DNA from: Nemertoderma westbladi
Lineage: Eukaryota; Animalia; Xenacoelomorpha
Direction: 5' to 3'
Length of the DNA: 64,000 bases
Assembly: GCA_032718475.1 (NCBI GenBank)
Contig: JAUCBJ010001372.1
Location: 2,706-66,705 of the forward strand
Below, piece after piece: positions 339 through 56,390 of the stretch; position 1 is the stretch's first letter; each line of letters starts with the position of its first letter. Below the pieces are notes generated by a model. The model worked only from the letters and a program-made list of their open reading frames with translations, made no database searches and was not told the origin of the DNA. The position numbers and the translations under genes are program-made.

Positions 339-1215
339 TCAACGAATAGAATGTTCTTCAAGTATGTCGAAGAGGCCGCTATTGTTAGTGGAGTCTACAG
401 TTCCTAGGATCGAGGCCGAGTTGCCGATTAGGATGGCTATCAGGAGTCTTTGCAGCAGGAATCGATGAGACCGGGGTTCCTGTGTTGCTTGTCGAATCTT
501 CCTGCCGACCTCTTTCAGGAATGAGGTTGTTGCTGGTCCTGGCTGGCCAAGCGTTTCGAAGGCTACTGGTGCGAAGAGGTATCCGTGGTCTACTAGTTCT
601 TTGTACTTTCTGGATTTGGTCTCTTCTTGCTCCTCGGCAACACGACCTCCTGCTCATAGACTGGTAGCGAGATGGCTGGGCGCTAGAGGGTCTACGACCG
701 TCGCGTCCCACGTCAGGGACTTACCACGCGACCAAGGGATGAGGGTCATGCCGTCTGGGCGTTTACCGTCCGTTCGACAGAGGCCTGGCGGCTCCAGGAT
801 GGACGGAACACCACAGCTGGAGAGTGCGCGCTTTATGATGTCATTTAGTGCCGTGTAGCGCGGAATCCGCCCCAAGCTCCTCTGGCAGGACAGGCCATGT
901 AGGCCTTCGGTATCGACTTCCTTACCGCATCTGGCACATGTGTGTTGTTCTGTGACTTGACAGCCTAGTCGAGTAGCGATTGAGAGGCGGAGCTGACTGT
1001 CAGTTAGCTTTAAACCTAGCGACGACGATGGTAGCGCGTCTATCCAGCAACCGGCGACAGGGTCATCTAAAGAGTTTAGTCGAGCGATATTCTTCGGAGA
1101 AGCGGTGCGGCGAAGTGACGCGAGGTTCTCTTCATGGATCGGGTTTGTCCAAGACTTCTGCATGTTTACAGAGGACGCTGAAGGTTGCTCGCAATCAGTG
1201 GCCACCGATCTCTTA
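339..1215 (-). pseudogene. 5'-truncated non-LTR retrotransposon (CRE-like clade), C-terminal CCHC knuckle plus restriction-like endonuclease
   Basis: Translation shows CARC-x8-H-x3-C, R(Y)xxLN, KRPDGMTLIPWSRGKSLTWDATVVD. Past an in-frame TGA at 654-656 the same frame continues KSRKY...FAPVAFETLG...LQRL..AI..GN to a stop at 339-341. Confidence 0.85.
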
Positions 1216-1253
1216 TTGTTACAAGAAAAAAATATTAATATATTTATATTTAC

Positions 1254-1800
1254 TGTTAGCTTATTCAATCCCGCTAACACCCCATAAAGTTAAGCCGATA
1301 AGCAATATTGGGGGCCACGAGATTGGGTAATCAACCAACTCGTGCCACCCCAACAAAATGGGAAGGAGAAACACAATGAGGGTCAGGGGCCAAACCCCTA
1401 ACCCAGAGAGAACAGGTGGAGTGAACGGGAACACTCCAAAGGGCGCCAACAAGGGTATCAACCAATCAGAGGGGGGAAAGGCATCGATTAGGTAGAGTAA
1501 CAAGGCCAACCGTGCAATATAGCCACTTGGCAGTAATCATTTCAGTTCAGTTATCTCAGTATCATATTGGTGCTAGTTAGGTTAGTTAGTTTAGCTAGGG
1601 AAGGACCGGGACTTTAATTACCGTATCCCGCCTTCTGTATACGACAACATTATCCATATACCTATATCTATATACCCTATATCTATATCAGTTATTATAT
1701 ACGACGAACGACACGAACTCCTAATACCTTTCATACACACGGCGGGGACGCGTAAACTAAACAACCGGATAAACCGGGATCCTTCCTGGATCCCGTCACA
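1254..1800 (+). repeat. 5' LTR of Bel/Pao element
   Basis: TGTTAGC...GTCACA; matches 11850-12396 with two substitutions found by eye. Confidence 0.97.
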
Positions 1801-1862
1801 GTAATTAAATCCGAGCTGTTCCCCTAGCCAGCTAAACCACCAGCCACCAATCACCAAGCGAG

Positions 1863-4800
1863 ATGAGCCAGTCGGGAGAGACAACGCCGACGCGGACCCC
1901 GGACGAAGAATTAACGATCCGCGAGGCCGCAACCAGGCGGTACAGGCCCACAACGCCGGACCCATCGGTAACGGGTCATCCGGCAGTCCAGGATGAGGGG
2001 GGCCGCCTGGAACCCGAGGTCGAGCCAAGAGAAGGAGAGAGCGAGACGGAGGGAGACGGAGACGAGTCGACACGAGACGTGGGTCGACGTACCGATGTCG
2101 CCGGCCAGCCACAGGCCGAGGGCGACGAGCGGCCCACCGAAACGGCGACGGTGGGGCCGACGGTACGACGCCGGACCCGAAGAGACGGAGGAGATGTCGG
2201 TACCGATGTCGCCGGCCAGCCACGGGCCGAGAGCGACGAGCGGCCCACCGAAACGGCGACGGTGGGGCCGACGGTACGACGCCGGACCCGGAGAGACGGA
2301 CGAGAGGTCGGCGACGAGGACGTCGGGGTTTCTGATCGACTTCGACGGGCCTACAACGCGACCCGGAGACTATTAAAGGAGGCCAGAGGAGGGGCGACGA
2401 TAGACAAGGTAAAACTAAAGAGAGGACTAGGTGAGTCGAATAGACACTTTTATTATCTAATGCGCTTCGGGCAAAGAGGACTGGCCGAGGAGAGAGCGAG
2501 AGGGGTTGCCGAGGAACTGTATGACTTATGGCGGTATGGGGGTATAGAACCTAGCGTAGTGTACGTAGGGCCGTACTTAGTCGATGCCCGGGGAGTAAAA
2601 TTAGTGGGTTGGGAGAGACCTGAGGAGGACGAATCCGAGGTTAACCCCGAGGATTCAGCCTCGTCGGTCGGAGGAAGTTCCGGGAGGCGGGGGAAGGTTA
2701 GTAGGACGGGGAGGCGGAGGGAATCCGTTACAACCGATAAGTCTGCTACATCCTCCGTGAAAGAAAGACGGGTGAGAGAGATAAATGCCGCGTACCGTCT
2801 CGATTTAATAGAGCAAGGTCAAAGGGAAGTAGGTAGACGGTTAGAGGAGGGGAGAGTGCTGCTAGAGAGGGAAATGGCGTTGATTAAGGAAACCGGAGAG
2901 AGGGCCGAAAGGGCCGCGAGAAGCCTTAGGGAGTGTGAGGAAGTAGGGAGGAAGGAACAAGAAGAGCGCGAGGCGAGAGAGAAAATTGAGCGCGAAAGAG
3001 CGTGAGGCGGAATGTAGGGAACGTGAGGTGAGGGAGAAAAATGAGCGCAAAGAGCGTGAGGCGAAAGAGGAAAACGAGTGCAGAGAGCGCGAGGAGAGAA
3101 AGGAAAACGAACGCAGGGAGCGTGAGGCGAGACGAAGGGAGGGGGCTAGAAGAGAGTTGGAATTGGCCGAACGGGATGCACGGGAGTGTAAGGAGAGAAT
3201 GGCAAGGAAGGAGTGTGAGCAAAAGGAACTAGAGAAACGTCAAGGTGAGCTTACAGGGTACAAAGCTGTACATACGCGCGAACGGGAATTGGCGCGAGTA
3301 GGGGCGTCTGAGAGTGGGGCTAGCTCGAGTATTTTCGAGGAGCCAGGGGCCGTGGATACATTTATTAATACCCCACTTACAGGGACCGCACGACAGACCC
3401 AAGACTGGTGTGACCGTACGGGCGGGGGGGGGGGGGGGGTAATAATAATGCTATAGTAGACGTCGTTAATATTAATAGTACCGTATGGGATAACTCTAAC
3501 CAAACCTTTATTGCAGCAAATAATGCTTTACCTAGTAGCAGTAATTTAAATTTAAGTACAAATAATAATTTCAATTTGAACGTGCAAAATAATTCAAATA
3601 ATTTAAATAATGATCCAAGCCCGAATTTACAAAATAATTCAAATGATTTTGTTTCAAACGAACAAATTAATTCCGTTTCCAATATGGGTGCTATTAACAT
3701 GAACACGTCGGGCGTGTATGGCCAGGCAGACGGGGGCCTGGTAGGCCGTACAATTGGTAGGTCGGAAGTGGCGGGATTGAGCCAACCCAGAGAGGGCCTG
3801 GTAGGCCACGTAGTTGGTAGGCAGGGAGCGGCTGGGTTGGGTAGACCCAGTGAGGGCCTGGTAGGCCACGTAGTTGGTAGGCAGGGAGCGGCTGGGTTGG
3901 ATAGACCCAGTGAGGGCCTGGTAGGCCACGTAGTTGATAGGCAGGGAGTGGCTGGGTTGGACAGACCCAGCGAGGGCCTGGTAGGCCACGTAGTTGGTAG
4001 GCAGGGAGTAGAGGGCCTGGTAGGCCACGCAATAGCAGAGGGGGAGGCGGGGGTGAATAGACCCGACCGCGGTAGGGTTGATGTGTCGACTAGAGAGGGA
4101 TATAGTAGCGGGGTGAGGGATAGCGAAGTTAGATGTGGCGAGTGGGGGGGGGGGGCTACAGGGGCCCCACAACAGCGAGTTAGCGGCGAAAGGGGGGGGG
4201 GCAGGGAGTGCTCCACAGCCGTCAGCGGATAATGCGCGGGCCGAAATAGGTAAACCGCAACACCCGGCGACGGAGAGTAATAGGGGGATTGCGAGTATCC
4301 CCAGCGGCGTGCGACCGAGCAGAGAGAGACAGGTTGACGTCGTGAGAGGGCGGACGAAGCGTCGAGCCCGATCAGAAGAGGGAAGAAGAACAGTGGGGTT
4401 TAACCGGGAGGTCGACGAGAGATCTCACGAGCGGGAATACTACACTGAAAGGAGAGGAAGAGAAGACAGTAGTAAAAGTATCGCCGCGAACGATAGAAGA
4501 GCGAGGACGGATAGCGAGCCGTCGGTAGTCGAGATGAGAACGGAGAGTCAGTGGGGTCGGACTCCGGGAGATTGCCGTCGCCCCGGAGAGATGCGACCTG
4601 GCGAGGTGCATTACGCGCCGATGGAGGGGTACACGATGTACCGGTACGAAGACGAGAACAGTAGAGAGGGAGGTCGAAGAGAAACTTTCCGACGGAATGT
4701 ACCTACCGATCGAGAATACGGTAGCCGCGGGGAGGACTATTCGAGAAGAATAAACTTCGATCCCGAGCGACACATGCAGACTGTAGGACATACTGTAGGC

Positions 4801-5118
4801 CTTACTGCACATACCATAGGCCATACTGAGAGAGGCAATGTAGGCGATAGGATAGCGCGGACAACGGGATTAAACCCGGAAGTCGCGGAATACATACCGG
4901 CGGGTAGGCCAGAAGCTGATAGGCCTATACCGGTACCAGTACAGCAGTATGACTACAGCATGCAGGGACATAACATATACCCAGGGGAGGGGGGAATTAT
5001 TGCGGATAGGTGTATGGGCCCCAACATATTAACATCAACCCCAGTACCAAACATACCGGTGGGGGGGGGGGACAGGGTGACATTCCCCCATCACAATATC
5101 AACAATATACCCCGATAG
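1863..5118 (+). CDS. Long low-complexity/coiled-coil N-terminal extension of Gag, split over several frames
   Basis: ATG at 1863; same-strand ORFs 1863-3005, 2986-3456, 3576-4232, 4135-5118 run into the gag ORF. Three breaks coincide with long G runs (~3424-3439, ~4144-4201, ~5061-5071). Contains a 111-bp duplication (2089-2300), an E/R-rich stretch and 60-bp repeats (~3730-4030). Confidence 0.65.
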
Positions 5119-7772
5119 GAGCAAGAACAACGAGACCTTTGGATGAAAATAGGTCGTGTGACACAGAGATATGGAGGGGGCCGCTACCCCCGATGACATA
5201 CCCAAGTCAAAGAAGATCAAGAAATAGGACGGACGAACCGCACCAGACAGGAGAAACTATACAGCATCCATCGAACCCATTGGAAGTGCAGGCGATGGGG
5301 ATGGCCACGTTGATCGATGCGTTGAAAACGAGGATCGAGTTACCACCCGTGGAACCATTCAAATTCGATGGGAGTAGGCCGGAAGAATATCTACAGTTTC
5401 GGCGCATGTATAGTAACGAAATACTAACAAAAAACTTGACGCAGGCGGAGTGCCTAAAGTATCTGCAAGTATACACGGGAGGCCCAGCATACGATATCGT
5501 GAGGCAATATCAAGGAATAGAGGGCGGCTTCACGACAGCATGGCGGGCACTGGACAGGGAATACGGGCACCCGGCCAAGATCATCAGACAGACACTGAGA
5601 GGCATAACATCGGGTGGCCTACAGGATAATCCCGTTAGCATTAAGACGTTCGCTAACAAGGTCGAAAAGGCGCTAATCGTGCTGAAGACGCTAGACGCGC
5701 CATACGAGCTCAACGCGTCCAATAACATCACCACGATAGCACAGGCACTACCAAACTGGCTGCGCAACAAGTGGAGGAAGATCGCTTTCTCCACTCGAGA
5801 CAAGAAGGGTGTGGAACCGGGTTTAGAAGAAATGTCAAGCTTCTTAAACTACGAGGCTGAACTAATAACTGACCCAGTCTATAGCGAAGATAGCCTGGGA
5901 AAGGGACCGAAGACGGATTACCATAGACCGAAACCAGAGCACAATACATCAAACGCATTACCGAGGCTCAGGCAATCATTGCCATATGCAGCGACGCAGG
6001 GGACTGCAAGTCCACAGCTAGCCGAAGATAAGACAACACCATGGAACGGACAGGGGAACAATAACAACACGAATAAATATAACCCCAGTACGTCCAGTAG
6101 GCCGAATCCAAACAATAAGAATAGTAGGGACTTTGGTACAAACGCAGCTGCGATACGCAATGCACTGTATAAAGAGGGCTACGACCCAAAGAGCAAATGC
6201 CAGCTACACGCAAATGCGCTTCATCAAACCATGAACTGCAGGTACTGGCAGGCGCTACCTAGGCAAGATCAGATAGATTATGCGTTGAGCAATAAAATCT
6301 GCTCGCGATGTGTGATGAGTGGACATAGAGCAAGGGAATGCAAGGAGAAGCCGGTCAAGTTTGGTCAGAGGAGAGGCCAAACGATGGCGACGAGCACAGT
6401 AGGGGCGAAGAAGAGAGGAACGGTGTTACTTGGAGTAGTACCCGTGCGAGTGATTGGGGAAGGCAATCGATCAGTAACAACACTAATGCTGGTCGATAGT
6501 GGAGCTGCCTTCACATTAGTCGAGGAATGGGTGGCCGAAGAGATAGGATTGAGAACGAGGCCAAGCAGAATGGCGGTAACAACCATCTCTAGCAAAGATG
6601 AGATCCTGGAGATGAGAACAGGACGGTGCGCAATTGCAGCAGTGGCACCGGGATGCGACTATGGGGCAACCATCGACCCCATCCAAGTGATAGAGTCAAT
6701 TAATATCAATGCCAGGCGGCCAACCAACATCGAGGTCGAGCAGTATAAATTCCTGGACGACATTGACTTCTCAATCCCAGATGTGGACGTTAGGAAGGTA
6801 TCCATCATAGTAGGAATGGACTGCCCAACGGCCCACGAAAGAATGCAAACGGTCTTCGGCGAAGACAAGCAGTGTGACCCGGTGGCGATATTAACACCAT
6901 TCGGGTGGACACTGACAGGCCCAATTAAGAGTAATATACCATTCCATGTGTCTGAGAGTTCAGGATGCATGGTGCCAGGAACTGTCGACGAGATAGAGGA
7001 GAGGCCAGAGATGGGCAATAGTGGTAGACAGCTAGAAGTGGAAGCAACACCAAGAGAGTGGGCGGAGGAGAATGGCATGGATGCAGAAGATCTAGAGACG
7101 ATGGGTTGGAACAAGAGTCCCAGCAAGCATCGGTATGGAGATGGAGAGGAGCGGACGGCAAAATGTCCGGGGGACAGGCCGGAGGAGTGTCCGGAAGAGA
7201 TGCCGGTCCGGTTGGGAGGCATGCCGACAAGGGGGAGGCCGAGCAGGAGGACTAAATGGAAAGGGAGAAGATTTGAGACGACCAGACCAGGGGCTGAGAA
7301 GCCCGTGGGTGGGCGTGTGATGGACAAAGGAGCCGGGAAAGTAGGAGGCGTGCTGCATACGCACGCGGGACTGACAGAGTGCGAGGGGGCATTACATGGG
7401 CAGAGATCGTGTATACCGAAGGACGAACGGGGGTCGTCGAGGCCTTTAATGCCAGCACACATATTAAGGGGGAGGCCAGCAGAGGTGGCATCTAAGATTA
7501 AGGAGAAGAACAGGGGCGGCATTATACCGCCGGGCGACACGTTGAAGGGTGGCACTTTGCCGCCAAGGGACGACCACGAGATCAGAAACATAAATAACAG
7601 ACAGCATTTCCAAAGACAGGAGAAAAGGCCACCAGAATTGACAAGGAGAGCGGAGCGAAGAATTAGAGGACCTGTGGGGTGGCAGTGGGAGAGTTGCCTG
7701 CTGGAGGAATCACCCCTTGGGTCGCTGAGTTGTCCAATAGGTTGGACTGGGATGGAAGAGTTAGATCCATAA
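5010..7772 (+). CDS. gag: Bel/Pao Gag core, zinc knuckles, aspartic protease and degenerate integrase remnant
   Basis: IELPPVEPFKFDG...YLQF, CLKYLQVYTGGPA, REYG (DUF1759-like); CQLH..H...C and CSRCVMSGHRAREC knuckles; LVDSGA protease; ILTPFGWTLTGP Pao motif; later LTECEGALH..RPLMPAHILRGR resembles the integrase C-terminal part. No YxDD RT motif. Confidence 0.88.
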   Translation: MYGPQHININPSTKHTGGGGGQGDIPPSQYQQYTPIGARTTRPLDENRSCDTEIWRGPLPPMTYPSQRRSRNRTDEPHQTGETIQHPSNPLEVQAMGMATLIDALKTRIELPPVEPFKFDGSRPEEYLQFRRMYSNEILTKNLTQAECLKYLQVYTGGPAYDIVRQYQGIEGGFTTAWRALDREYGHPAKIIRQTLRGITSGGLQDNPVSIKTFANKVEKALIVLKTLDAPYELNASNNITTIAQALPNWLRNKWRKIAFSTRDKKGVEPGLEEMSSFLNYEAELITDPVYSEDSLGKGPKTDYHRPKPEHNTSNALPRLRQSLPYAATQGTASPQLAEDKTTPWNGQGNNNNTNKYNPSTSSRPNPNNKNSRDFGTNAAAIRNALYKEGYDPKSKCQLHANALHQTMNCRYWQALPRQDQIDYALSNKICSRCVMSGHRARECKEKPVKFGQRRGQTMATSTVGAKKRGTVLLGVVPVRVIGEGNRSVTTLMLVDSGAAFTLVEEWVAEEIGLRTRPSRMAVTTISSKDEILEMRTGRCAIAAVAPGCDYGATIDPIQVIESININARRPTNIEVEQYKFLDDIDFSIPDVDVRKVSIIVGMDCPTAHERMQTVFGEDKQCDPVAILTPFGWTLTGPIKSNIPFHVSESSGCMVPGTVDEIEERPEMGNSGRQLEVEATPREWAEENGMDAEDLETMGWNKSPSKHRYGDGEERTAKCPGDRPEECPEEMPVRLGGMPTRGRPSRRTKWKGRRFETTRPGAEKPVGGRVMDKGAGKVGGVLHTHAGLTECEGALHGQRSCIPKDERGSSRPLMPAHILRGRPAEVASKIKEKNRGGIIPPGDTLKGGTLPPRDDHEIRNINNRQHFQRQEKRPPELTRRAERRIRGPVGWQWESCLLEESPLGSLSCPIGWTGMEELDP

Positions 7773-7939
7773 AAGGTGCGGGCAGAGGTGTTACCTGTCT
7801 GTTAGAAGGGGCACCTTAGTGGAGTTAGAGAAGAGTTTAGTCGTCCAAGCTTTGGACTGAGGGGGGTGGGATTGAGGGCGAGACGCCCTTCCCATACATA
7901 AAAAAATAAAAAAAAATAAAAAAAATAAAATAATAGTAC

Positions 7940-8640
7940 ATAGTAGGTACGCAGTTAGTAGGCAGGAGTTAGTCAGTAAGAAGGTACGTAGTACCTAGAG
8001 TTAGTTAGTTAGTTAGTTAGGAGGTACGTAGTACCTAGAGTTAGTTAGTTAGGAGGTACGCAGTACCGTTAGTTAGAGAAGAGTTAGAGGGTACATAGTA
8101 CCTAGAGTTAGTTAGTTAGGAGGTACGTAGTACCGTTAGTTAGAGAAGAGTTAGAGGGTACGTAGTACCGTTAGTTAGAGAGTTAGAGGGTACGTAGTAG
8201 CGTTAGTTAGAGGAGAGTTAGAGGGTACGTAGTACCGTTAGTTAGAGAGTTAGAGGGTACGTAGTACCTAGAGTTAGAGGAGAGTTAGAGGGTACGTAGT
8301 ACCATTAGTTAGAGAGTTAGAGGGTACGTAGTACCGTTAATTAGAGAGTTAGAGGGTACGTAGTACCTAGAGTTAGAGAGTTAGAGGGTACGTAGTACCG
8401 TTAGTTAGAGGAGAGCTAGAGGGTACGTAGTACCGTTAGTTAGAGAAGAGTTAGAGGGTACGTAGTACCGTTAGTTAGAGGAGAGTTAGAGGGTACGTAG
8501 TACCGTTAGTTAGAGAAGAGTTAGAGGGTACGTAGTACCGTTAGTTAGAGAAGAGTTAGAGTTAGAGGGTATGTAGTACCGTTAGTTAGAGAGAGAGTTA
8601 GAGGTAAAAGGGTATATGAGATATAGATATTAGTTAGCAG
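7940..8640 (+). repeat. Tandem array of ~28-33 bp units (GAGTTAGAGGGTACGTAGTACCGTTAGTTA) inside the LTR element
   Basis: Visible repeats, each with the imperfect palindrome GGTAC-GTA-GTACC. Confidence 0.95.
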
Positions 8641-9080
8641 TTAGTAGCGAGAGGGGGGCATATGAGTACAGCTGGGTAAATCGTGTGGCCACACGACGCA
8701 TACTGCTGTACTGCTGTACAGGCCCACAGTGTAGGCCAGAATGTGGATTAGAGAATAGAACAATCCATAGGCAATAGTAAGTAGTAGGACAGTAGAATTA
8801 AAATTAAATAAAAAATAAATAGAATAGGGCTGAAAGTTGCAAATAATGGTGTAAAACAAGGAAAGTTATTCTGGAACATAATTAAAGTAACGGACAAAAA
8901 ATGAGCCTAATTTACTCATTTACTAGCTTCAAAATTAATTAGTAACAATTTAGGTTAAAAGGCGCAGTTAAGTAAGAAATAGGCCATTATCGGACCGTAC
9001 AGAACATCCTAGATACATCACTCATCTGTATTGCGCCTTGGTAAGGCACCACCTTGCAGGTGAGCGAGTGAGTGTTCGGA

Positions 9081-11138
9081 ATGGCGAGCAAATTGATCAG
9101 AAAGAGAAAGGCGGAGTCAGGAGGAAAGGAGATACTGGTGGATTTCACCGAGAGGCATCCGGAAGAGAAGACGAGAGGATACTACGAGAGGTTGGAAAGG
9201 GGTCACGCGGCACGAGCGCTGCATGATCGCTTCCGGGAGATGCACGAACAGCGGCTGGTCGGGACCTACGGGACGCCGTCGCTGGACAACGCGATCTTCC
9301 AACACTTCCACTACGTGGTGAAAGGGGACGAGGCGAAGTTCGGGATTCCGAAGTACCCGAGGGAATCACCGAGGAAGGACTGGAAGAGATTCATAGAGTC
9401 CGTCAACAGGGGAGGATATATGATCCTAGACGACGAGGGAACCGTGGAAGACGAGGAGGGTTCGAGACGAGGATCGGCGGGGTCGGCCAGGACCATACTC
9501 CTACATTTGGGGGACATTACATTACAATGGGGACATCTTCTTATTCGATCTAGGAACGTATGGGAAGAAGGACGGGCCGAAATTAAACCGGTTACCGAAA
9601 GCGGTACAAGTCTTGGTAAGAGAGAAGTCGACGACGAAAGTAGGATCGGCGATTCGCGAGGATGCGGAGAGAATCATCGGTCCGGACGCCACCAACCTCC
9701 TGGATATGCAGAAGGTCTTTATGGCTATGACGGCACCGGATGGGTTGGGGGTAGTCGAAAACACAGGCCAATGCGGGGCGGTGGCAATGGGCCAATTATT
9801 GGGGCTCGTGTGCCACAAACCGATGGATTGGGGGAAGTTCAGGGAAGAATACGGAGCAGAACTAGCGAACTCGCTAAAGTGGGGAGCGAGACCGGGAAAG
9901 CAAGAGGTATATCAATTCCGCAGAGGAGCGATAAAGGTATATCAGAAGCGATATATCCTGCAGGAAGATTGGATGATGATAAGTTTGCTTAACTTATTTA
10001 TGACCGTGGTTATCGAGAGGGAACCAGGGGCATTTCTGTTATCGGGATCACCCCTAAGCTACAGGAGAGCCTTTAAAATGGCCTTCGACGGTCTGGTAGA
10101 CCACCCGGGGCTGAAGGGTGAGTCGGTGTACTACAACAGCCAGCATCTGGTAGACGGGGAGACGGATACGCCGTATCAGAGATGGGAGCAGCTAGAAACG
10201 GATAGACGAGAAGCGAAGCGACTGGAAGAAGTCGCCAGACGGGAGAGGATAGAAGCAGAGGAGAGGGAAGAGGAGGCCAGGACACAGAGTTACGGCTTCA
10301 AGGAACAGGCAGGCTTAGACGAGCTTCATTGGACTTCGTCAGGGAGTTCGGGGGAGTCTCTAGGGCGAGAACTGGGATGGACGGTGGGATCACCGAAACA
10401 GTCGACGTCGGGGTTGCAAATGACGCCCATACCAGCGGGCGCCGAAGGCGACCAACCGCCAAGGAAGTTAAGGGAGCTAGAGGGATGGAGAGCTACGGGC
10501 GAGAGCCAAGGCGGGAAGGGACATAGTGGATCCATCGGGATACCGGGGTTGGAGCCACTGCCAGAGGAGGAAGAGGACGACGACGAGTTCGGAGGGGTGC
10601 CGCCCATCGAGAGGATTGGCCACTCGGACACGGACTGGGTTGGCGGAAGGGTGGTGACGGCCAGTGGGGCGATGGCCTTCTGGAACAGATCCGGCAAGTG
10701 GACCTGGGTGCACTCTTCCTTATCAATCAGGAGGCTCACATGGAAATCATAAAGCGGAGGCTACCGTTTACCTATCAAGAGGTAGCAATGGCGGCGTCGT
10801 ATGCCGGAGTAATGAATACACAAAGATATTTGGACAGATGGACGCCACAGAACCGAGGGGAGTTTAGGGATTTCTTGGCGGAGCACGTACCGCAAGCAAT
10901 GAAGATGATCCTATGGGACGCCACCAGAGGGAGACAACAGGACCACTCTGAGGAGCCACCGGCGAAGCGATATCGGGCACTAATAACACCAGCGCCCAAG
11001 GAGCCAACAACCAGAATCAGCAGGGAGGTGGCGGCGAAGGTCCGAAAGCAGATAGCGGATCCCAGAGGAGCGGTGGTAACCAAGAAACGACCCAGGGAAG
11101 AGGACGCCAGGGGGAACTATCCCCAGAGGAACAGATAG
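9081..11138 (+). CDS. Extra ORF (~680 aa if two frameshifts are repaired) with a DEDDy/WRN-EXD-like 3'-5' exonuclease domain
   Basis: Joining 9081-~9520, ~9520-~10680 and ~10680-11138 gives ILDDEG (Exo I), LLHLGD..IFLFDL, LPKAVQVLVREKSTTKVGSAIREDAERI (Exo II), NLLDMQ, GQLLGLVCHKP, QKRYILQED (Exo III-like). Confidence 0.72.
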
Positions 11139-11840
11139 GTTCCCAGGGCCGAGGGAGAGAAACTGGGACTTGGACGTGGTACGCCTGGAAGGCGCCGCGT
11201 GGGACGTACGAACTATTAAGTACAAATCTAATTAATGCAAATAATCATATAAGTGCAATTTGTATGTACGTACGTAGTAATTAGTAATCTACAAATATAC
11301 GTTCGGAGTAAGTACTATAGTCATACAACCTTTCTCAATTAGCTACTGGGACTGGGGGGATAACTGACTATGGCACTATGGACGAGACACCAGACAATTT
11401 CACACTTCTTGAGTGCGACGGCACAAGAGGGGAGGGAGATTCGTCAGAAGGGATGAAGCAGTCGAAGTGGGGTTGAGGAACGGAACAATAGTGCGAAGTG
11501 CGGAGAGAGTGCGGACGCAATTCTAGTGTGTGGGGGGGGGGGAGAATAAGAGGCTGAGTGAGGGACGAGGAGGTCCGAGGGTATGAGAGAGTTAGGGTGA
11601 GAGTGGAGAAGAGATAGGGCGAAAGTGTTGGGGAAACAAAAGTCGCGTGAGAGGTGAGCGCGATTGGCCCGACATGAGACGCCAGGCATATAGGGTAGCG
11701 TTATCATACCCATAGGGAGCGGCCTGGAAAGCCGGCTCCGAGAGAAAAGAATTCCACCCCACACCCGATACTAGATCGGGATCCAGCGGGATTGTAGCGC
11801 ACTTAAGGTGGATGCTATCTTCTCACCGGGAAGATAGCAT

Positions 11841-11849
11841 GGGGGGGAG
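11841..11849 (+). promoter_or_regulatory. Polypurine tract of Bel/Pao element
   Basis: GGGGGGGAG directly abuts the 3' LTR start at 11850. Confidence 0.9.
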
Positions 11850-12396
11850 TGTTAGCTTATTCAATCCCGCTAACACCCCATAAAGTTAAGCCGATAAGCA
11901 ATATTGGGGGCCACGAGATTGGGTAATCAACCAACTCGTGCCACCCCAACAAAATGGGAAGGAGAAACACAATGAGGGTCAGGGGCCAAACCCCTAACCC
12001 AGAGAGAACAGGTGGAGTGAACGGAAACACTCCAAAGGGCGCCAACAAGGGTATCAACCAATCAGAGGGGGGAAAGGCATCGATTAGGTAGAGTAACAAG
12101 GCCAACCGTGCAATATAGCCACTTGGCAGTAATCATTTCAGTTCAGTTATCTCAGTATCATATTGGTGCTAGTTAGGTTAGTTAGTTTAGCTAGGGAAGG
12201 ACCGGGACTTTAATTACCGTATCCCGCCTTCTGTATACGACAACATTATCCATATACCTATATCTATATACCCTATATCTATATCAGTTATTATATACGA
12301 CGAACGACACGAACTCCTAATACCTTTCATACACACGGCGGGGACGCGTAAACTAAACAACTGGATAAACCGGGATCCTTCCTGGATCCCGTCACA
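11850..12396 (+). repeat. 3' LTR of Bel/Pao element
   Basis: Near-identical to 1254-1800, followed by TSD TTTAC. Confidence 0.97.
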
Positions 12397-12519
12397 TTTA
12401 CTTTGTTTGTATGGAGAGATGAAAACATTTATTGTACTTTGCCATATTGTAAAACAAATAAATTGACAGTGCCAGTTGCCTGCTGCCATGTTTTCCTCTA
12501 TTTTATTGACATTCAACTC

Positions 12520-15799: not shown

Positions 15800-18700
15800 T
15801 TACTTGGATTTTGCATCTAGTTTTTCCCATTGTTTAGCAAGTCTGGTGCGGAGGGCAATCTCCTTCTCATTCCAAGTGTCCTTCCATGTCTGATGCACCT
15901 GACTCTGTGGCCCAAATACCTGTTCATTTGGAGGTAGAGGGAGAGTATCCCTCAGGGTTTTGCCTAAGAGGACTTGAGCTGGCGACATGCCACTATCTTG
16001 CTCAGGTGTGTTTCTAAACTGCAACACACCACGTAGGAACTCATCTGTGTTCAGGTCACCTGAGTCGCTGGTGTTGTCCCTAAGAAGCCTCTTCATAGAC
16101 TTAACTGCCACCTCAGCCCTACCATTTGACTGTGCAAAGTATGCTGATGATTGCCTGTGTGCTACACCCCATCTCTTAAGAAAATCTGTAAATTCCTTAG
16201 CTGCGAACTCAGGGCCCCCATCACTCGAAATTTCTATTGGAACTCCATATGCTCCAAAAAGTAGTCGTAATGCCTGTGTGAGACCTTGGGATCCACAATT
16301 CTCATTCTTTCTTGTGATATGGAATATACTCGGCCAATTTGTGAATCTGTCAACAGTGACCAAGTAGTAATTACCTTTGAGGTGGAAGTAGTCAGCGGCA
16401 ATGGATTCAAATGGCATGGAAGGGGTTGTAGGCTCAGCAGGAGGCAAGCTTGACTGGCTGGGAGCAATAGAATCACATGTGGTGCATTTTGACCGGATAG
16501 TCTGTATATCTGAAGTAATCCCTGGCCAGAACACTGATGCCATAGCTCTACCTGTCATTTGAGTTGTCCCCTGGTGTGCTCCATGAAGGTGTTCGCAGAC
16601 CTCATCACGGAGGCTCGGTGGAATAACCACACGGTCTTTATACATTACAACACCGTCTGTGACAGATAAATCATCCCGGTATTTCCAGTACTGGATCAGC
16701 TGTGGGGACAGATTGCTTGCCCTCTCAGGGAAACCATTTTCTGCCATATCTATAAGCTGAAGAAGATGAATGTCTTTGTTTGTCTCATCTCTGACCCTTT
16801 CCCAAGTTACTGCCTTAAGCTTGTCTAAACCAGACCTGGCAGCGGCAATAATGGCATCCTCAATGTCATCTATTTCACGAATAACTCTGATGGTTGCTAG
16901 GCAATCATCTTCAATGCCTATGAGAGTTTCGTCAGCCTCTAAGTTGCTAGGGTTTCTCGATGTTGCATCAGGGGCAGGGATATTTTTCCCAGGTACATGG
17001 AAGATTCTGAATCTCCATGACATTGTTTTCTCCTTCAAGCTAAGAATTCTTCTGTTTGTTATCTCATCCAGTAACCTGTCACCAAGTATTTTGATAAGTG
17101 GTTTGTGGTCAGTCTGGATAATAAGATCTGCGCATCCCCATGTAAAGAACTTAGTATCCTCTAGTGACCATGCAACAGCGAGACATTCACCCTCTATAGG
17201 CCAGTAGTTTTCCTCAGCCTTCTTGAGGAACCGTGAACCTGCTAGTGTTATCCTCCAGCCACTTGGACAACATGTAGTAATGTCAGAATTACATTCACAG
17301 TATTTCTGGTAAAGGAAGTAACCAATCCCCTTCTTGCACCAGTCTGGGCTAAGGCAGGTCTTCCTCGATGGGTCAAATATTTCTACACCCTCTATGATAG
17401 CCTGGCTTATCTCCAACTTAGACTGAATAAAAGAAGCCTCCAGGTCATCATTCCAGTGGAATCTTGTCTTTGGACTGAGGAGAGGCTTGAATGGGGACAT
17501 AAGGCCTGTGAGACGACCATAGTGTGAGACCTGGTTGACCAGGCCAAACCATGCACGAACATCAGTTATGTTGGTAGGTCGTGGGAAATTCTTGATTGAG
17601 TCAATATACTTGGGGAGTGGCTTGACATTGTTATTGGTAAGAAGGAATCCTGCAAACTCCACAGACTTTTGGCAGAATTGGAATTTCTTGGGATTTAGGA
17701 TTATCCCATGTTTCCCCACGAGGTCCAGGTAGTCCATAATCCTTCTCCAATGTGTCTCCAAGTCATTGTCCCATAAAATTGTGTCATCGACACATTTCGA
17801 CTTTCTTTCTACATCAGCTATGAGCTTATCATATCGCATGTTGTACCCATCACCACTGGAAAGGTACCCCTGGGGGGCAACATTGTAATGGTATCGACCA
17901 TTCTCTGTGATAAAGGTTGTGAGGTGTCGGTCCTCTTCCTTTAATGGGACAGAGTGATATCCATTCCAGGCATCAGTTACTGTTCTGTATGTATTGCTGG
18001 GTACAATCCGTGCCTGTTTGAATGGTGGAATCAAGTGGTATGATTCTCTGATGCAAACTTTGTTAAGTGGTCTGAGGTCAATGGTCCTTCGAGGTGAACC
18101 ATCCGGCTTCGGCACAACATGCATTCTGTGACACCAGGTGGTAGGTGTCCCTGGCTTTACTTTAGACAAAACTCCTAGAGCCTCATCCTGATCAAGCAGA
18201 GCCTGGACCTCCTCTCTCCAATGGATTGGCACAGTTGCAGCAGTGTGCACTGCATGTGGAGTGGCCTCTGGGTCAATATGTATTGAAATAGGTGGGCCAG
18301 ACATCATGGGCAGACGTTGGTGCGGACACCTATTGAATGTGGATGCAGAATAGTGTTCCAATAGCCATTGACGCATCTTAGTGATATTTTCCTCCCTGGC
18401 AGGGAAGGGAAATTCCTTTGGTTGGGGTGGTGGCTGTTGGTGATAAGGGCATCCACATGGAGCTGTTCCATTCAAACCAATACTACCTTTGGCATTGTCA
18501 CTGACTCCACATACTGATGCAGACCCAATCTTAGGAAAATCATTTCCAATTATCTGGAGTTGTTGCATAGCCTGTTTACTCAGGTAGAACAGAGATGTTG
18601 AGTCAGTTACATATGCCATTATTGCTGTTTGGAGTTTTTTACCACTATCAGGGTTGACTCCGGATATGCGTAGGAAGATGGCTCCTAGTATATGGATCTC

Positions 18701-20007
18701 CTCATGGTTGATAGCCCGTAGCCTATTCTTTACATGTGCTAAGTCTTTCTTCTTGAGTCCTAGGTGGTGTAGCATCTTTAGACCAATGAGGTTGGATTGG
18801 GCACCTGTGTCAGTTATAGCTTCAATTGATGTGGGCCTTATCTTAGGGAAAGGAAGCCGGAGGTGGCTATAGTCAGATTGGTCAGTAGTCACTATCAAAT
18901 TTATCCGTGGCTGGGAACTAGCTGCTGCATTTTTCCAACCATCGGTACCATCGAAAATAAAATTGTCCAAACCCACTGTAGGATGGCCTTCTCTAGTTGA
19001 GGCCAGTTCAAACTTCATTGACGACATGAAGTTGAAAAAAGCATTGTTTTCTGGGATGGTTGAATTGGATTTTGTGCTCATTGTCATAGCTTTCCGACTA
19101 TTGGACTGTCGCCAGCAGGCTTTGCATTTGGGAAAGGTAAGGAGTTTGTCATCTTTCCCCTTGCTGCCCAAGCGTATTTTGTGTTTGAGAAACTCTTTTC
19201 CACATTCCTCACACTTTGCTTTCAATAGGAGTCTTTTATCATTTGGATGAATCTTTTTGAAACTGAATGTGGCTGCTTGGTTTGATTCATGGCCTGGTTG
19301 AGGGGCTATAGATCTGATGGCACGCTCCTTTGTTTCAATTAAGGCAATTGTGTCGACCAGACTCATTTCATCCATTTTGTCAGTCCCAAGGACTTCAAGC
19401 TTGATATCTTCATCTGCCAGTCCTGTTATAACGACTAATTTAATGATAGCTTGACTGTAGTCGACCTTCAGATTACAACCGCCACATGTCTGAGTGAATC
19501 CACAGGTCTGGGCCTTTCCCCTAACCCTGGCAGCAAACACACGAATTCGTTCACCATGGTCTTGTCGCAGTGACAGTAATTCTGTCTGTTGGACAGAAAT
19601 GGCCACAGAGACAACTGCCAGCTTTTTAATGGCTGCCAATAATTCAGCCTCTGACTTTGTGTGTGCAGTGGGATCATCCCTATGGATGTCTGACTTGAGG
19701 TCACTATCACAGCAGTTTAACAGGTGGACTGGAAGGGAAGCTGGGTTTATAGTTGTTGCCGACTTGAATATTTCCCACTCCCGCTCAAATGCATTCCAGC
19801 TATCCTCATAGATTCCCCCCTTAACCTTAGGTGCCTCAATCTTGGGAGCCTTTTGCTTTGCCGCTGGTGCGGTAGCCTCAGCGTGATCGGCATCAGGTGG
19901 GTGGGTGGACTGTAGGTGGTGCTGGAGCATTACTGCCCCGGCAGCGTCAGCGACGTCCGGGGTCCTAAACCCACAGTTATGGCGATGTGGCAACGAATAG
20001 TCGGCAT
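15800..20007 (-). CDS. pol: Gypsy Gag-Pol polyprotein
   Basis: DTGA protease; DAWNGY, APQG, CVDD RT; DWCKKGIG/EGECLAV/TDHKPL RNase H; H-x2-H...CTTC and ADYF/SDGGPEF/NGRAE integrase. Likely true ATG at 20007 (MPTIRC) with a frameshift near 19980. Confidence 0.95.
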
Positions 20008-20093
20008 TTTCAATAAGTGCTTACTTCTAGGTCTAGCCTGAACGCTGAACATATAGCATTTCAAATCACCATATCATTACAGTATATGTATCA

Positions 20094-31155: not shown

Positions 31156-31582
31156 CAAAGGTCAATAATTATGGTGTGGGTTCAACAGAGGACTCATAAC
31201 TAGTGTCCCTTATACATAAAACTGTGGCTGATGTCATAATGCGAATCTTCCATGACTTAATCACATTGTGATTTATTGAATCAATGTTTGCATGGGAAGA
31301 CCCAATCTTGTCGAAAAATTGACAATATTGTCGAAATGAACTTAGGGTGATAGATCATAGGTGGATTTTTATGGCTGAGAAAGAGGTAGATAACCTAATT
31401 AAAGGAAAGGGTTAAGAGGGATCAAAAGAAAGTTACAATGAGAGGAATGAGAAACTGAATATGGAGCAGGAATGTTTTTTTAGATGGTATATTTGCTGAT
31501 TAGTTATGGTAGTTTTGGTGACATCTGTGTAAATCAGGCTGAATGATGGTAAACTATTACAAGTTTAACAGCAGAAGGAAAA

Positions 31583-33134
31583 GTGAGGGGCACTGAGCGA
31601 CATTGGAATAAATTCCGATATGCTGGATTGGCAATTTGTAAAGAAACTTTCAAATTTATACATGGCATCGGGAAAAAACGATTTGAATTGTTGGTAAAAC
31701 ACTTTGATGAGTTTGGTGTTCAAATACGTGTGCATGGATTAATTGGAAAGTCCGGCAATAGATCCAAGAACAGTGAATTTAATCCAGTTGACCTTGTCGT
31801 GAGTGCTAAACGGTATGTCGAAAATATTGCAGACAATACTGCAATACCATTACCAGGTCGGCTGCCTGGAGTTAAAGATTTTTCATTGGTCCAGTTACCC
31901 AGTGCTTTAACTAAAAACGAGGTATATCGCAGATACATTGTTAGTTGCATTGAATCAAATAAACCATCAGTAAAGTACTCCACTTTTACCAAGATTTGGC
32001 GAACATATACACCACACATTTGTACTATGAAGCAAATGTCAGACCTCTGTGAGGTCTGCAAGAGGAATGGTCTACTGATCATACGAAGTGCGGCTTTCCC
32101 AGAAGAAGTTCGTGTTGAAAAACTGAACATTGCAAGGGAACACATCGAAACGGCTAACCATCAACGGGAGTTTTATAACAGTTTAGTAACAAACCCCATA
32201 GGTAGAACAATAAGTTGGGATTTTGCCCAAAATCTAAGTTACCCGTATAGTCCCCAGCAAGTGGGGCCACTATATTTCAAGGTGCCTCGTAAGTGTGGCC
32301 TTTTTGGCATACAAGATGAACGAGATCACGAGCAACTAAATGTCTTAATTGATGAGGAGGATTTTTGTGGAAAAGGTGCTGATGCGACTATTAGCATGAT
32401 TCACTACTACCTAAACGATGTTAAGGAGGATGAGCTAGATTGTTTCGCCGACAACACCGTAGCGCAAAATAAAAATAAAGCTATGATTGAGTATCTATCA
32501 TGGCGGGTGGATTCTGGAAAACAGAAGCGAATTTCTCTAAATTTTAACCTGGTGGGTCATACCAAATTCTCCCCGGATCGAAGTTTTGGACTTATCAAGA
32601 AGAAGTACTCTATCTCTGATGTCAACACACTGGATGATATTGTTGATGTAGTGAAAACGAGCACTCAAACTGGGAAAAACAAAGTCGTTACTTCTATGAA
32701 TACAGCCACTGATCAACGAAACATAATTTGTTATGGTTGGACCGAATTTCTTGGAACTTCGTTTAAGACTATTGAACGGATAACAGACTACCACCATTTT
32801 GAGATCAAACAGTCAAATCCTGGAAAAGTCATCCTGAAGAAATTGATTTCTAGTGAAGTTATTCAAATGTTCTATCCGTAAATCAACTGAAAAGGGATCA
32901 GATCTCTTAGTCGAACTACCGAAAGGTTTGCCTGCGGCTAAGGTGCCACAAGGACTATCACCAGAACGCCAGTGGTACCTATATGAACAGGTTAGACCTT
33001 ATTGTCTTTCTGAACTCTCTAGAGCTCTCTTCTGTCCGAAACCGGATATACCACGACCAACAAAAGCAGGAAGCAAACAGTTATGTGTTTCTAACAATCA
33101 TCGAGATGTTGCTGGGCCATCTGTAGAAGTGTGA
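31583..33134 (+). pseudogene. DDD-type transposase, Sola1-like, frameshifted near 32860
   Basis: CEVC, WDFAQN, GPLYF..PRK, FADNTVAQNKN, LVGHTKFSPDRSFG motifs; tail GLSPERQWYLYEQVRPYC...CPKP; CSVC..GH knuckle near 33165; candidate right end ...GGTCAC|ATAT at 33728. Confidence 0.75.
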
Positions 33135-52196: not shown

Positions 52197-53302
52197 ATGA
52201 GTATATCTGCATTAGCGCGATTGTATATCTTTACAATTGTCGATTGTTATTTTAAAGGGTTTGACCATAATGAAACTCAAACAGTTCTTGGTTCATTTCT
52301 ATATCAACACGAGTTATTCGCAGGGATTTGAACGGTATGGGATTTGTGAAACGATTTAATACAATTGATTTGGACAAGCTCATCGACCATATTGACAAAG
52401 AAAGGAATTTAAGTTCCATTGCGTCGGGTATTGGTTATCGGCAAATGCAGAAGACATTGATGTTAAAGTACAAATTGTATGCTCCTAGGGATTTAGTTGC
52501 AAAGATTATCTTCTTGCTGGAGCCTGGAGCTGTCAGAAAAAGACTTGGAAGAAAGATTGTTCGGCGTACCTACCTATCAAAAGGGCCAAACTATTTATTA
52601 CATATAGATGGGTGGGACAAGTTAAAACCTTACGGCTTAGCAATACATGGAGCCATCGATGGCTATAGCCGTAAAATGATGTGGCTATTTTGCCATCGAA
52701 GTAATAACGATCCATTTGTAATTGGGAGTGAATTCATTAAGTGTCTGATGCGACTAGGTGGAGTGCCTCACATTGTTCGTTGTGATAGAGGTTCAGAAAA
52801 TGTCAATGTTGAATTATTCCAAAGGTTATTCCGTTTAATTCATACAGATAACAATGCAACGAGAGGATCAGTGTTTCTATATGGAAAAAGTTCCAGGAAT
52901 CAACGAATAGAAGCGTGGTGGAGTAAATTTCCCATTCTAGGTATGGAAGCTTGGTTGATTAATTTTCACGAGTTGGATATTTCTGGGGTCATTGACACTT
53001 CTAATATGTTACACATTGAAATTATTCGTTTCGTTTATATTGATTTACTGCAGAGAACTCTAGATTTTATTGTTGAAAAATGGAACACGCATCGATTACG
53101 AAAAAGTGGTTTAATTGCCCCACCAGGAAAGCCGGACATTCTCTTTTTCGATAATCCTAATTATTTGCATGCTATTGACGATGAAACTCTTACCTTGGTG
53201 GAATCTTTCAATAATCTAGGGAATGATGATCACGGTACTCCTTGCCGACTCAGTGTGTATAATATTTGCCTACATATTATCTCAAATGTAATCGAAACAT
53301 AA
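52197..53302 (+). CDS. Integrase-core DDE transposase (IS3EU-like), frameshift near 52300
   Basis: GYRQM, RRTYLSKGPNYLLHIDGWDKLKPYGLAIHGAIDGYSRK, VRCDRGSEN, GKSSRNQRIEAWW, WNTHRLR, GKPD; upstream ATG at 52197 gives a typical HTH-like N-terminus in another frame. Confidence 0.88.
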
Positions 53303-53958: not shown

Positions 53959-56390
53959 TTAGTAAATCCCAAATCCGTGACAGTTGAGAATGTCTTCTGT
54001 CACATTCTTTGCAAAGCTGCGGGAAGAACCGACCAGATAACGATCATTTATTGGAAATTTTATGACATTAGCACAGGTGTCCCCAATAAGTCTCCTTTTG
54101 CAATCATTGGTTCTATGGAAACCTAATTCCCCAATAAAATTGGGGTAGGGAGACCTACTACCAAACTGCAATACATCATTCAATGTTAATATATGTCTAA
54201 GAATGGCTTCTACGTCACTATGGGGATCCTCAATAACATCAGATGCCAATTCATTGCGTTTGACTTGTTTTAGAAACATGTTAAACTTAAATGCTATCTC
54301 ATTTTCTTTGTGCCACTCCTGCGTATTCTTATGTGCTTCGTGTTTAACCCGAAAGCGCTGTTTGACTTCTTCAGCTGTGACGGTCTGATGTGTTAGACAT
54401 TTCAGGCTATCTTCTGGAAAATTTCTCATAATATCATAAACTCCAAAAATATTCAACCCTTCACGGAACTTATTAATTTCTTCAGAGACAGTACTAAATA
54501 AGATATGCTTCAGTAGCAGATCTACAACTTTGTCTTTCTCGTCCATGGTTATGTTTGCTTGTAAAACTCCCATGTCGAACAGCTCAGTAAGACTATTTAC
54601 TGCATTGATCAAATCACCTTCAGTGATAGCCTCTTTTATAGTATTGACTCTTTCAATTAGTTCATCATCTTTAGGTATATCACTAATATTTATACTAAAC
54701 GGTAGTTCCAGGATCACACGGGCAAATACATCACTGAAACAATGGGGCCCAGGGGCGCCATTTAGAAGTGAAATCCCAACTAATTTCCCAAGATGATAAA
54801 ATCTTTGGATGTCAGACAAGTTATGTCGAAAAACATACCCTGGATAAGATCCACGAAACATGCAATTCCAATTGACTTTCCATCAGCCTCCAAGGATGGA
54901 GGCTGATGGAGAAAAAATAATGATAACAATTCTCGTAAAGGCCCTCCTGTGTCCACAGCTTCTTCGTCCAAAAACTTAACCATCAAGGTGGGACGAATCT
55001 CTTCGGTATCCATAATATCATACACACTTTCCACGATACGACTTCGTGGAACTTCTAGAACTGAGTGGCTTGGATCCATTTCCTTTAAAGCTTTGAATAA
55101 ACTGGTCAATGAAGATGATAGATTGCTTTCAACTTCGACAGCAATAACAGAATCGGCACATGTAGTATCACCATTCTCTTTGATATGATCTACATCAACA
55201 TCATTATCTAATACAGACATCGGGGTATCGGCAGTGTTCTCGTGATTGTCGTTATGACTAAAGAACAGAGATCTCAAATTTGCCAATTCCTCACGTGTGT
55301 ATTCATACATTGTTGTAGGTTCTGTAATATCAGTAAAAGTATCAGCATTAGCGGTCGAAGTAGAGGATAGTAAATCTATAATTTCCGACTCATTGTAATT
55401 TTCATTAAGTTTACAGTTATAACAAATGGTTTCAGTTCGTGGTCGGCTGGTCGAGCATACTGGACAAATTAATCGCCTTTCACTACATATGGAAGCATTA
55501 AAATTACCCTGCACAGAATCATCAATAACTTCAATATCAGAGTTTTCTGTATTAAACGAGTTTTGATCACCTGTATCCAAACTTTCAGTTTCAGTTCCCA
55601 AGTTAACATTATTATTAGCAGTCCCAGTGGTTCCACTTCCATTTGAAATTTCTATTTTCCTCTTGCCAAACAGAGTTAGTTTGGGAATTCCCGCAACACA
55701 GGTGCTTTCCAAATATTTATGTAGAGATGCATGATTCTCGATATCTTCACCAAAGTCATTAAGTAAATTGAAATCATAATCTGATTTATTGCAAGGCCTC
55801 TTTTGTAATTTCAACCGTGTATTATTCCCCATATCATCAAAGAATATTGTATCAATAACCTGTGATTTGATTGCAGTCATAGAGCTCTTCACTGGTATTT
55901 TCAGTTTTAAAATCGTAGAAACACCTAGTGGTTTTTTTAGGATAAACGGTTGTCCTTTGCCTGTGTCTATTTTACAGTTAAAATGTAAACACTTAGTAGT
56001 AGCTGGTGGTCGTCCCACTTTCGCATTAAATGGTTTTCTTTGTAAGCCGGAAATTTGCTTTGGTTGGGTTTGGCTTTGGAAATTGGAGCACAATGAATCG
56101 ATAGAACTAGGTGCACCACGAACAGCAGTGTCAGGCTCAGTAGTTTTATTTATGGCAACTGAGGCAGTGGAACTTAGGTCACAATTATTAATAACATTAC
56201 CAGTATTGTAGTCAGAGAGGCCCAAATCGGTATGATTATGACTAGGCCTATCACCTTCTACAGAAAATCTACGATATATTGAATCTATTCTTAAGTAAGT
56301 ATCCCTCCTTATATCATTGAGGAGATTTCGCCGAACCCTATTACCGGTATCATCCTGATCATCGACCGGATTGTCACTATTTGATTCCAT
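53959..56390 (-). CDS. G2E3-like HECT E3 ubiquitin ligase (two frames, break near 54880-54910)
   Basis: CPVC-x8-CYNC; EVPRSRIVES..VKFLDEEAVDTGGPLRELL (N-lobe); GKLVGISLLNGAPGP, FREGL, DTCAN catalytic Cys, terminal GFGIY with -4 Phe. Confidence 0.87.

Follow-up and report, generated by a model that had tools for sequence, protein, structure and literature searches.

Likely self-priming in a Bel/Pao-type LTR element of Nemertoderma westbladi

Described priming systems and the structure of the element

Accounts of priming in three papers describe self-priming for the Tf1/sushi elements and Tj1, and predict it for Tcn1 and for the copia TAR lineage (parts of PMC6317226, PMC4600332, and PMC7175516). 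In Tf1 the first 11 bases pair with the PBS (primer-binding site), and RNase H cuts between bases 11 and 12 (part of PMC7175516 on priming). Outside gypsy, self-priming was inferred from LTR complementarity for TAR, Houba and Osr-1 of the Ty1/copia superfamily, with a bar of at least 10 bp (part of PMC6317226 on these elements). The fungal GalEa copia elements have a conserved 9-bp non-tRNA sequence right after the LTR, like the element described here; its partner lies in a hairpin outside the LTR, and the pertinent text gives no LTR complement (PMC5445492). Hairpin priming has also been proposed as ancestral (as outlined in PMC3601003).

For Bel/Pao elements, the ICTV profile of Belpaoviridae gives an 18-nt site for tRNA-Arg or tRNA-Gly (PMC8742986). 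The words primer, PBS and tRNA occur nowhere in the genome-wide Bel/Pao survey PMC3118150, and PMC554778 mentions neither PBS nor tRNA. We found published self-priming for gypsy and copia lineages only. Judged by titles and abstract starts among the matches listed, there was nothing in print on self-priming, tRNA-independent priming or the lack of a PBS in Bel/Pao; such remarks may stand in subscription journals, in Repbase entries or in supplements.

The window, i.e., the whole stretch of DNA analyzed, comprises 64,000 nt of Nemertoderma westbladi (contig JAUCBJ010001372.1 of GCA_032718475.1, positions 2,706–66,705, forward strand). Within it, 1254–12396 is a recently moved, non-autonomous Bel/Pao derivative flanked by a 5-bp target duplication (1249–1253 and 12397–12401). 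Its main parts are:

1254–1800 (+), 5' LTR of 547 bp with TG...CA ends, 545 of 547 positions identical to 11850–12396
1863–7772 (+), gag-protease region, split among several frames upstream of 5010, with DUF1759 and an aspartic protease encoded by 5010–7772
9072–10752 (+), extra ORF, frameshifted near 9430–9520; possible DEDDy 3'-5' exonuclease
11841–11849 (+), polypurine tract abutting the 3' LTR
11850–12396 (+), 3' LTR, with a copy of the primer arm at 12209–12217

Since the LTRs are 99.6% identical (two mismatches over 547 positions), this form moved recently, and as a recently moved, non-autonomous element it should still hold the cis needs for reverse transcription. The LTRs, polypurine tract, DUF1759 gag and aspartic protease are shared with Belpaoviridae (Semotivirus), whereas pol has been lost and the 18-nt tRNA site of the profile is missing (PMC8742986). 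Pfam identified DUF1759 (E 6e-11) together with the Asp protease in the ORF at 5010–7772. There were 2501 relatives of the gag-protease, with 23–36% identity among the best 150 of the 2501. The best relatives carry Peptidase_A17 and DUF5641; Peptidase_A17, the Pao RNase H family, was present in 8 of 10 scanned relatives, which were mostly long proteins picked from the best 150 of 2501. Word-indexed protein searches returned no relative of the gag-protease or of ORF 9430. No remnant of RT, RNase H or integrase could be identified in the element by tblastn with the best 150 of 2501 relatives, nor did a profile of 18 full-length relatives match. The gag-protease is of Bel/Pao type and not of the gypsy type expected in the Tf1/sushi chromovirus lineage. 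The family is large, with 3941 contigs of sequencing run X1 aligning to 1200–2200.

Several further features were seen in and around the element. The gag frames (2947–5118) break near long G runs (3423–3438, 4142–4155, 4190–4201, and 5060–5071), which may reflect decay or assembly error, and gag also contains a 60-nt coding repeat (3734–4033). An array of 32/35-nt units lies between the protease and the extra ORF (7969–8637). A perfect 11-bp hairpin is found directly 5' of the polypurine tract (11812–11840), and 11777–11794 holds two 10-nt complements to the LTR, a possible 5'-3' contact. Beside the insertion is an ORF remnant (654–1250, minus strand; cysteine and RPDG motifs, no Pfam hit) that we take to resemble the endonuclease end of non-LTR elements. 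Elsewhere the window holds a gypsy-like pol (15800–20020, minus strand), a DUF7869 ORF (31553–32881), an integrase-like rva_4 (52274–53302) beside a HECT ORF (53959–54882), a MULE transposase (60416–63004) and two long inverted repeats (24830–25401/29828–30399 and 58706–59064/62823–63181).

Complementarity at the LTR edge and its variation across copies

Tf1 and Tf2 of Schizosaccharomyces pombe, Tj1, and the Tf1/sushi and Tcn1 chromoviruses (Ty3/gypsy) have no tRNA site, and the position after the LTR complements the LTR. The same holds for the element, as an earlier note on this DNA had pointed out. The nearest TGG downstream of the 5' LTR edge is at 2008, and 1801–1809 is the exact reverse complement of LTR positions 1613–1621, the sole such site in the LTR. 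The 3' end of this arm (1621) pairs with the first base past the LTR (1801), giving a 9-nt exact match at offset 0. Extra stems lie nearby in the Tf1 group, and stems are predicted here as well. The features of the region are:

1516–1552 (+), TATA-like AATATA at 1516–1522 and Inr-like TCAGTT at 1542 and 1547; motif-predicted start at 1544 or 1549
1588–1600 (+), outer helix H2, 5' strand, pairing with 1822–1838; few listed changes across copies
1613–1621 (+), candidate self-primer 3' end (helix H1); predicted cut at 1621/1622; 1617 varies with 1805
1622–1632 with 1741–1750 (+), helix H0, which closes the variable loop 1633–1740 and adjoins the predicted cut
1752–1770 (+), rival partner of the arm inside the LTR, paired with it in the minimum-energy fold; varies among copies
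1774–1794 (+), hairpin H3 at the LTR end; stem kept, loop variable
1801–1809 (+), primer-binding position without TGG, complement of 1613–1621
1822–1838 (+), outer helix H2, 3' strand, in the leader; from the predicted fold and the copies

The Inr-like motifs are thus present where the earlier note placed them, as motifs only. AATAAA is absent, with only variants at 1756 and 1768.

An anchored match of at least 9 nt arose by chance in 19 of 5000 dinucleotide shuffles of the LTR. When offsets 0–3 were allowed, 91 of 5000 Markov sequences matched equally, and 25 of 10040 internal positions match as well, 1801 included. The imperfect extension, which is only modestly beyond chance, has a local alignment score of 22, equalled in 24 of 2000 shuffles. 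The duplex of 1801–1856 (-41.7 kcal/mol) was equalled in 2 of 500 shuffles, yet in 12 of 198 internal windows of the element, and the shorter duplex of 1801–1834 in 35 of 500 shuffles. At 9 bp, H1 is one short of the 10-bp bar for predicted self-primers (PMC6317226). Taken from a single copy alone, the case for self-priming is no more than suggestive.

RNA folding of 1540–1865, a check named in the earlier note, gave a z-score of -3.26. The best fold pairs the arm end with 1752–1770 inside the LTR and not in H1, which has a probability of 0.16–0.18 in the intact RNA and 0.03 if the fold starts at 1588. H2 and H0 are predicted with high probability (0.94 for pair 1598:1824 in folds from 1544/1549, and 0.995 for pair 1629:1744). 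H1 is part of the minimum-energy cofold of a strand nicked at 1621/1622, for starts at both 1544 and 1549; for a primer that begins at 1588, the same cut leaves just 4 bp at the primer's end, formed with the in-LTR partner. Pairing of 1552–1557 with 1860–1865, over the gag start codon at 1863, is likewise part of the predicted fold.

Contigs of four sequencing runs from three studies (X1–X4, with X1 and X2 from the same sample) were aligned to 1550–1875. Contigs less than 80% alike were not aligned, which favours apparent conservation, and every "sole" or "no" about the copies rests on 40 of the 63 differences. Within H1 the sole changes listed fall on the two partners of one pair, with A>G at 1617 and T>C at 1805. 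This copy has A at 1617 and T at 1805, and most other copies have G and C. The shares of 1617 G and 1805 C in summed contig depth, a rough measure, are 69 and 81% in X1, 79 and 84% in X2, and 83 and 83% in X3, with X4 discordant at 100 and 54%; one partner pair has a 1-in-9 positional chance. The covariation of arm and leader that the earlier note proposed to look for across related families appears among copies as a joint shift in frequency of unphased shares, and X4 departs from it. The 1617:1805 pair thus occurs as A-U and, going by frequency, also as G-C; linkage of the two sites is what we infer, since no listed contig piece spans both.

The flanking sequence differs in how far it is kept. 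The arm (1587–1635) has one change, at 1617, among the 40 listed of 63 differences; in a second contig alignment (1200–2200), 1595 C>T is seen as well, chiefly in X4, and leaves a G-U pair. The loop (1636–1727) and the rival site (1753–1765) show many substitutions and indels. H0 is free of change on either strand among the 40 listed of 63, with many changes in its loop. In H3 there are loop changes at 1785–1787, and 1774 C>T keeps a G-U pair. The leader varies at 1810–1821, and 1828 C>T again keeps a G-U pair. Contig ends from X1 and X3 continue H2 without the four-base interruption of this copy, and two from X4 break one H2 pair. The predicted helices H0, H2, and H3 are thus little changed across copies, without two-sided change. 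Beyond ∼1838 the contig ends diverge from this copy, so the pairing common to copies is ∼35 nt. The imperfect pairing of ∼55 nt reported in the earlier note is present in this copy and appears to be kept across copies only to ∼1838; judged from the contigs, the 55-nt form is subfamily-specific. An exact LTR-end pattern had 0 matches in metagenome contigs. A further run, X6, which may be RNA, shows no coverage of 1574–2015, a blank that carries no weight.

Related Bel/Pao families and splice-junction sites

A scan with six full-length relatives gave 80 Bel/Pao loci, the best 80 of 528, in metagenome contigs; the viral collection had no Bel/Pao locus. L023, L026, and L027 are one family and the top three of the 80 loci against this gag-protease (166 bits, next 121). 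L026 and L027 contain the LTR end, where an exact 10-nt complement of their own LTR is found at offset 0, in letters that differ from the element's, followed by further helices to 38 nt (null 19/5000). The loss of complementarity in sister families that the earlier note would have counted against self-priming is therefore not seen here, since L026 and L027 keep an exact complement at the same place. As in the element, the L027 helix has a low probability (0.03) in the intact fold. The full-length family at L027:1374–1740 has both the continuous 10-nt self-complement and a second in-LTR partner for the arm. In its 3' LTR two arm positions differ, and both would still pair as G-U.

A different arrangement was common in other families. 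Among 12 loci with a repeat-fixed LTR end, eight carry 11–15 nt complementary to a GT-AG junction within the LTR of the same locus (seven of these with GTAAGT donors), one has a contiguous complement and one has TGG within 0–3 nt. Swapped pairs as a control gave 5 junction matches in 156, two of them between related families. A de novo scan found a junction complement in 17 of the 80 loci (∼14 families) vs. 5 of 318 swaps, and 17 is a floor, as many of the 80 loci lack an LTR. These loci are L001, L002, L018, L020, L022, L025, L029, L030, L031, L038, L045, L052, L056, L062, L073, L074, and L075. In all 17 the 11–15-nt site matches the joint left by removal of a GTRAG...YAG intron, often of 75–110 nt. 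L061 and L065 gave no match, with LTR ends that are uncertain, and L003 combines a junction match of 10 nt with a TGG at offset 1.

In the element's own LTR there is no GT-AG junction complement with at least 3 bases on each side, and a splice-built primer was rejected for it, as no junction fits. G at 1617 makes an AG that the A of this copy removes, and 1805 follows the unspliced letter, so that the arm is read as continuous.

A FastTree tree of 61 rows, restricted to rows spanning the gag-protease and to the first eight proteins, places the element in a starred set of 11 rows with L023, L026, and L027 and the splice-type L056 and L073. The element sits on a long branch (1.65), which gives its placement weak meaning, and no order of events is therefore drawn from the tree.

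How minus-strand synthesis may be primed

Minus-strand priming starts within a few bases of the LTR end in LTR elements, and priming near the LTR edge is required because that start defines the LTR end. Beyond the observed complementarity, its position, the frequency co-variation across copies and the counterpart in related families, we conclude that the element likely primes minus-strand DNA with its own RNA, the two routes considered below taken together. The best reading is Tf1-like self-priming with a nick at 1621/1622, which we hold to be fairly likely.

Transcription would start near 1544–1549, as the motifs suggest, giving a primer of 73–78 nt. H2 would hold this primer on the leader, and H0 and hairpin H3 would shape the junction. 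A nick at 1621/1622, adjoining H0, would then free a 3'-OH paired to 1801 at the LTR edge; by analogy with Tf1, the RT of a helper element may supply the RNase H that makes this cut. The RT would copy 1800 back to 1622 and jump to the 3' copy of R, and R would have to extend past 1622 for this jump. During plus-strand synthesis the end of the primer would be copied back into the site that it binds, and this would in itself couple 1617 to 1805. In the 3' copy, which has no binding site after it, the arm may be masked by its in-LTR partner at 1752–1770.

This scheme departs from the Tf1 group in several respects. The element has a Bel/Pao gag-protease and not that of a chromovirus, with no RT or RNase H in cis, and it has 9 bp plus an outer helix where Tf1 has 11 bp. 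The arm is the first 11 nt in Tf1, whereas here it ends ∼75 nt past the predicted start, and RNase H cleavage is reported for Tf1 but only predicted for the element. Tf1 is also said to need a U5-IR-like stem. TAR, Houba and Osr-1 belong to another superfamily and another host kingdom.

The primer could also be self-encoded but come from the 3' copy of the arm (12209–12217) or another transcript, cut or trimmed to the equivalent of 1621, possibly by the element's exonuclease-like protein. We consider this route unlikely. The arm is present in both LTRs and all sequence evidence for self-priming fits equally well, and a 3'-5' exonuclease suits trimming rather than nicking. ORF 9430 resembles DNA_pol_A_exo1 clusters (Atlas 0.92, 170 shared features; a lead only). 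An extra ORF before the 3' LTR is also found in the bdelloid rotifer LTR elements Vesta and Juno, whose ORF3 is of DEDDy type; the text on ORF3 gives no link to a PBS or self-priming (part of PMC5408684). Helix H0 would be in the way of such trimming, and the ORF is frameshifted here, without Pfam or PDB hits (single-sequence structure model pLDDT 38). Moreover, eight self-complementary relatives have only 83–285 bp between pol and the 3' LTR, which leaves no room for such an ORF, so the self-complementary arrangement does not need it. The link to an exonuclease suggested in the earlier note is unsupported on these grounds, and the initial nick is not one that a 3'-5' exonuclease could make.

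Somewhat less probable again than the 3'-copy route is that a host RNA primes at 1801 and that the LTR arm is a competing regulatory fold that would serve in packaging or translation or as a switch. In its favour are the weakness of H1 in the intact fold, which also covers the gag start at 1863, a loose GT...AAA resemblance among the primer sites of relatives, and the ICTV profile, which has the family primed by tRNA (PMC8742986). Against a host primer, the 18-nt tRNA-Arg or tRNA-Gly 3'-end site is absent from the element, where the first TGG is so far downstream. Half-tRNA priming of the copia, Osser and Bianca type uses a cut at nt 39/40 and the invariants Y32, U33, and a purine at 37. None of the 16 anticodon-loop half-tRNA registers fits when this copy's letters are compared with these invariants. 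A likeness of the arm to a tRNA-Lys anticodon arm was dropped, being in the wrong sense and with a site that fails the register test. ARAGORN predicted 0 tRNA genes in the 64-kb window, and Rfam gave two weak, chance-level hits in the element and nothing tRNA-like. The Bel/Pao element Cer7 of C. elegans, in contrast, has reportedly been proposed to encode its own tRNA-like primer as a separate sequence outside the LTR. Finally, a host primer would fix the site, and the site varies between copies and families, each time matching its own LTR, which argues against such a primer.

That the complementarity is chance, or a functionless relic that an old inverted duplication left in a copy now decayed, is very improbable: the single-copy statistics are modest (0.4–2%) and the element has frameshifts and no pol, but its near-identical LTRs point to recent movement, the site is kept in a large family, and the 1617/1805 partner change and the same geometry in L026/L027 speak against it.

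The proposal of tRNA-independent Bel/Pao priming in the earlier note is strengthened by the 1617/1805 frequency shift, the L026/L027 complement and the failed half-tRNA registers, and loses its 55-nt length and its exonuclease. Self-priming is a demonstrated mechanism in Tf1 and a predicted one in some lineages of gypsy and copia (in the accounts cited above), and here this known mechanism is likely at work in a superfamily for which our literature search found no report. It would contrast with the ICTV profile, in which a host tRNA primes Bel/Pao elements (PMC8742986), and would account for the failure of PBS finders to detect elements of this kind. It predicts an RNA 3' end at 1621, a strong-stop DNA of 179 nt, and linkage of 1617 with 1805.

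On a broader reading, to which we give a little better than an even chance, much of the Bel/Pao superfamily dropped tRNA priming, and each element makes the primer out of its own LTR transcript by one of two routes: over the joint of a spliced LTR intron, or from a continuous arm (the element, L026, and L027). The element would then be the intron-free form, with a tRNA-sized primer of ∼75 nt and a second in-LTR partner hiding the 3' copy of the arm. Self-priming in Bel/Pao, the third LTR superfamily, would show that such elements have escaped more than once from their dependence on tRNA, and from tRNA-fragment control, and would bear on the proposal that self-priming preceded tRNA priming.
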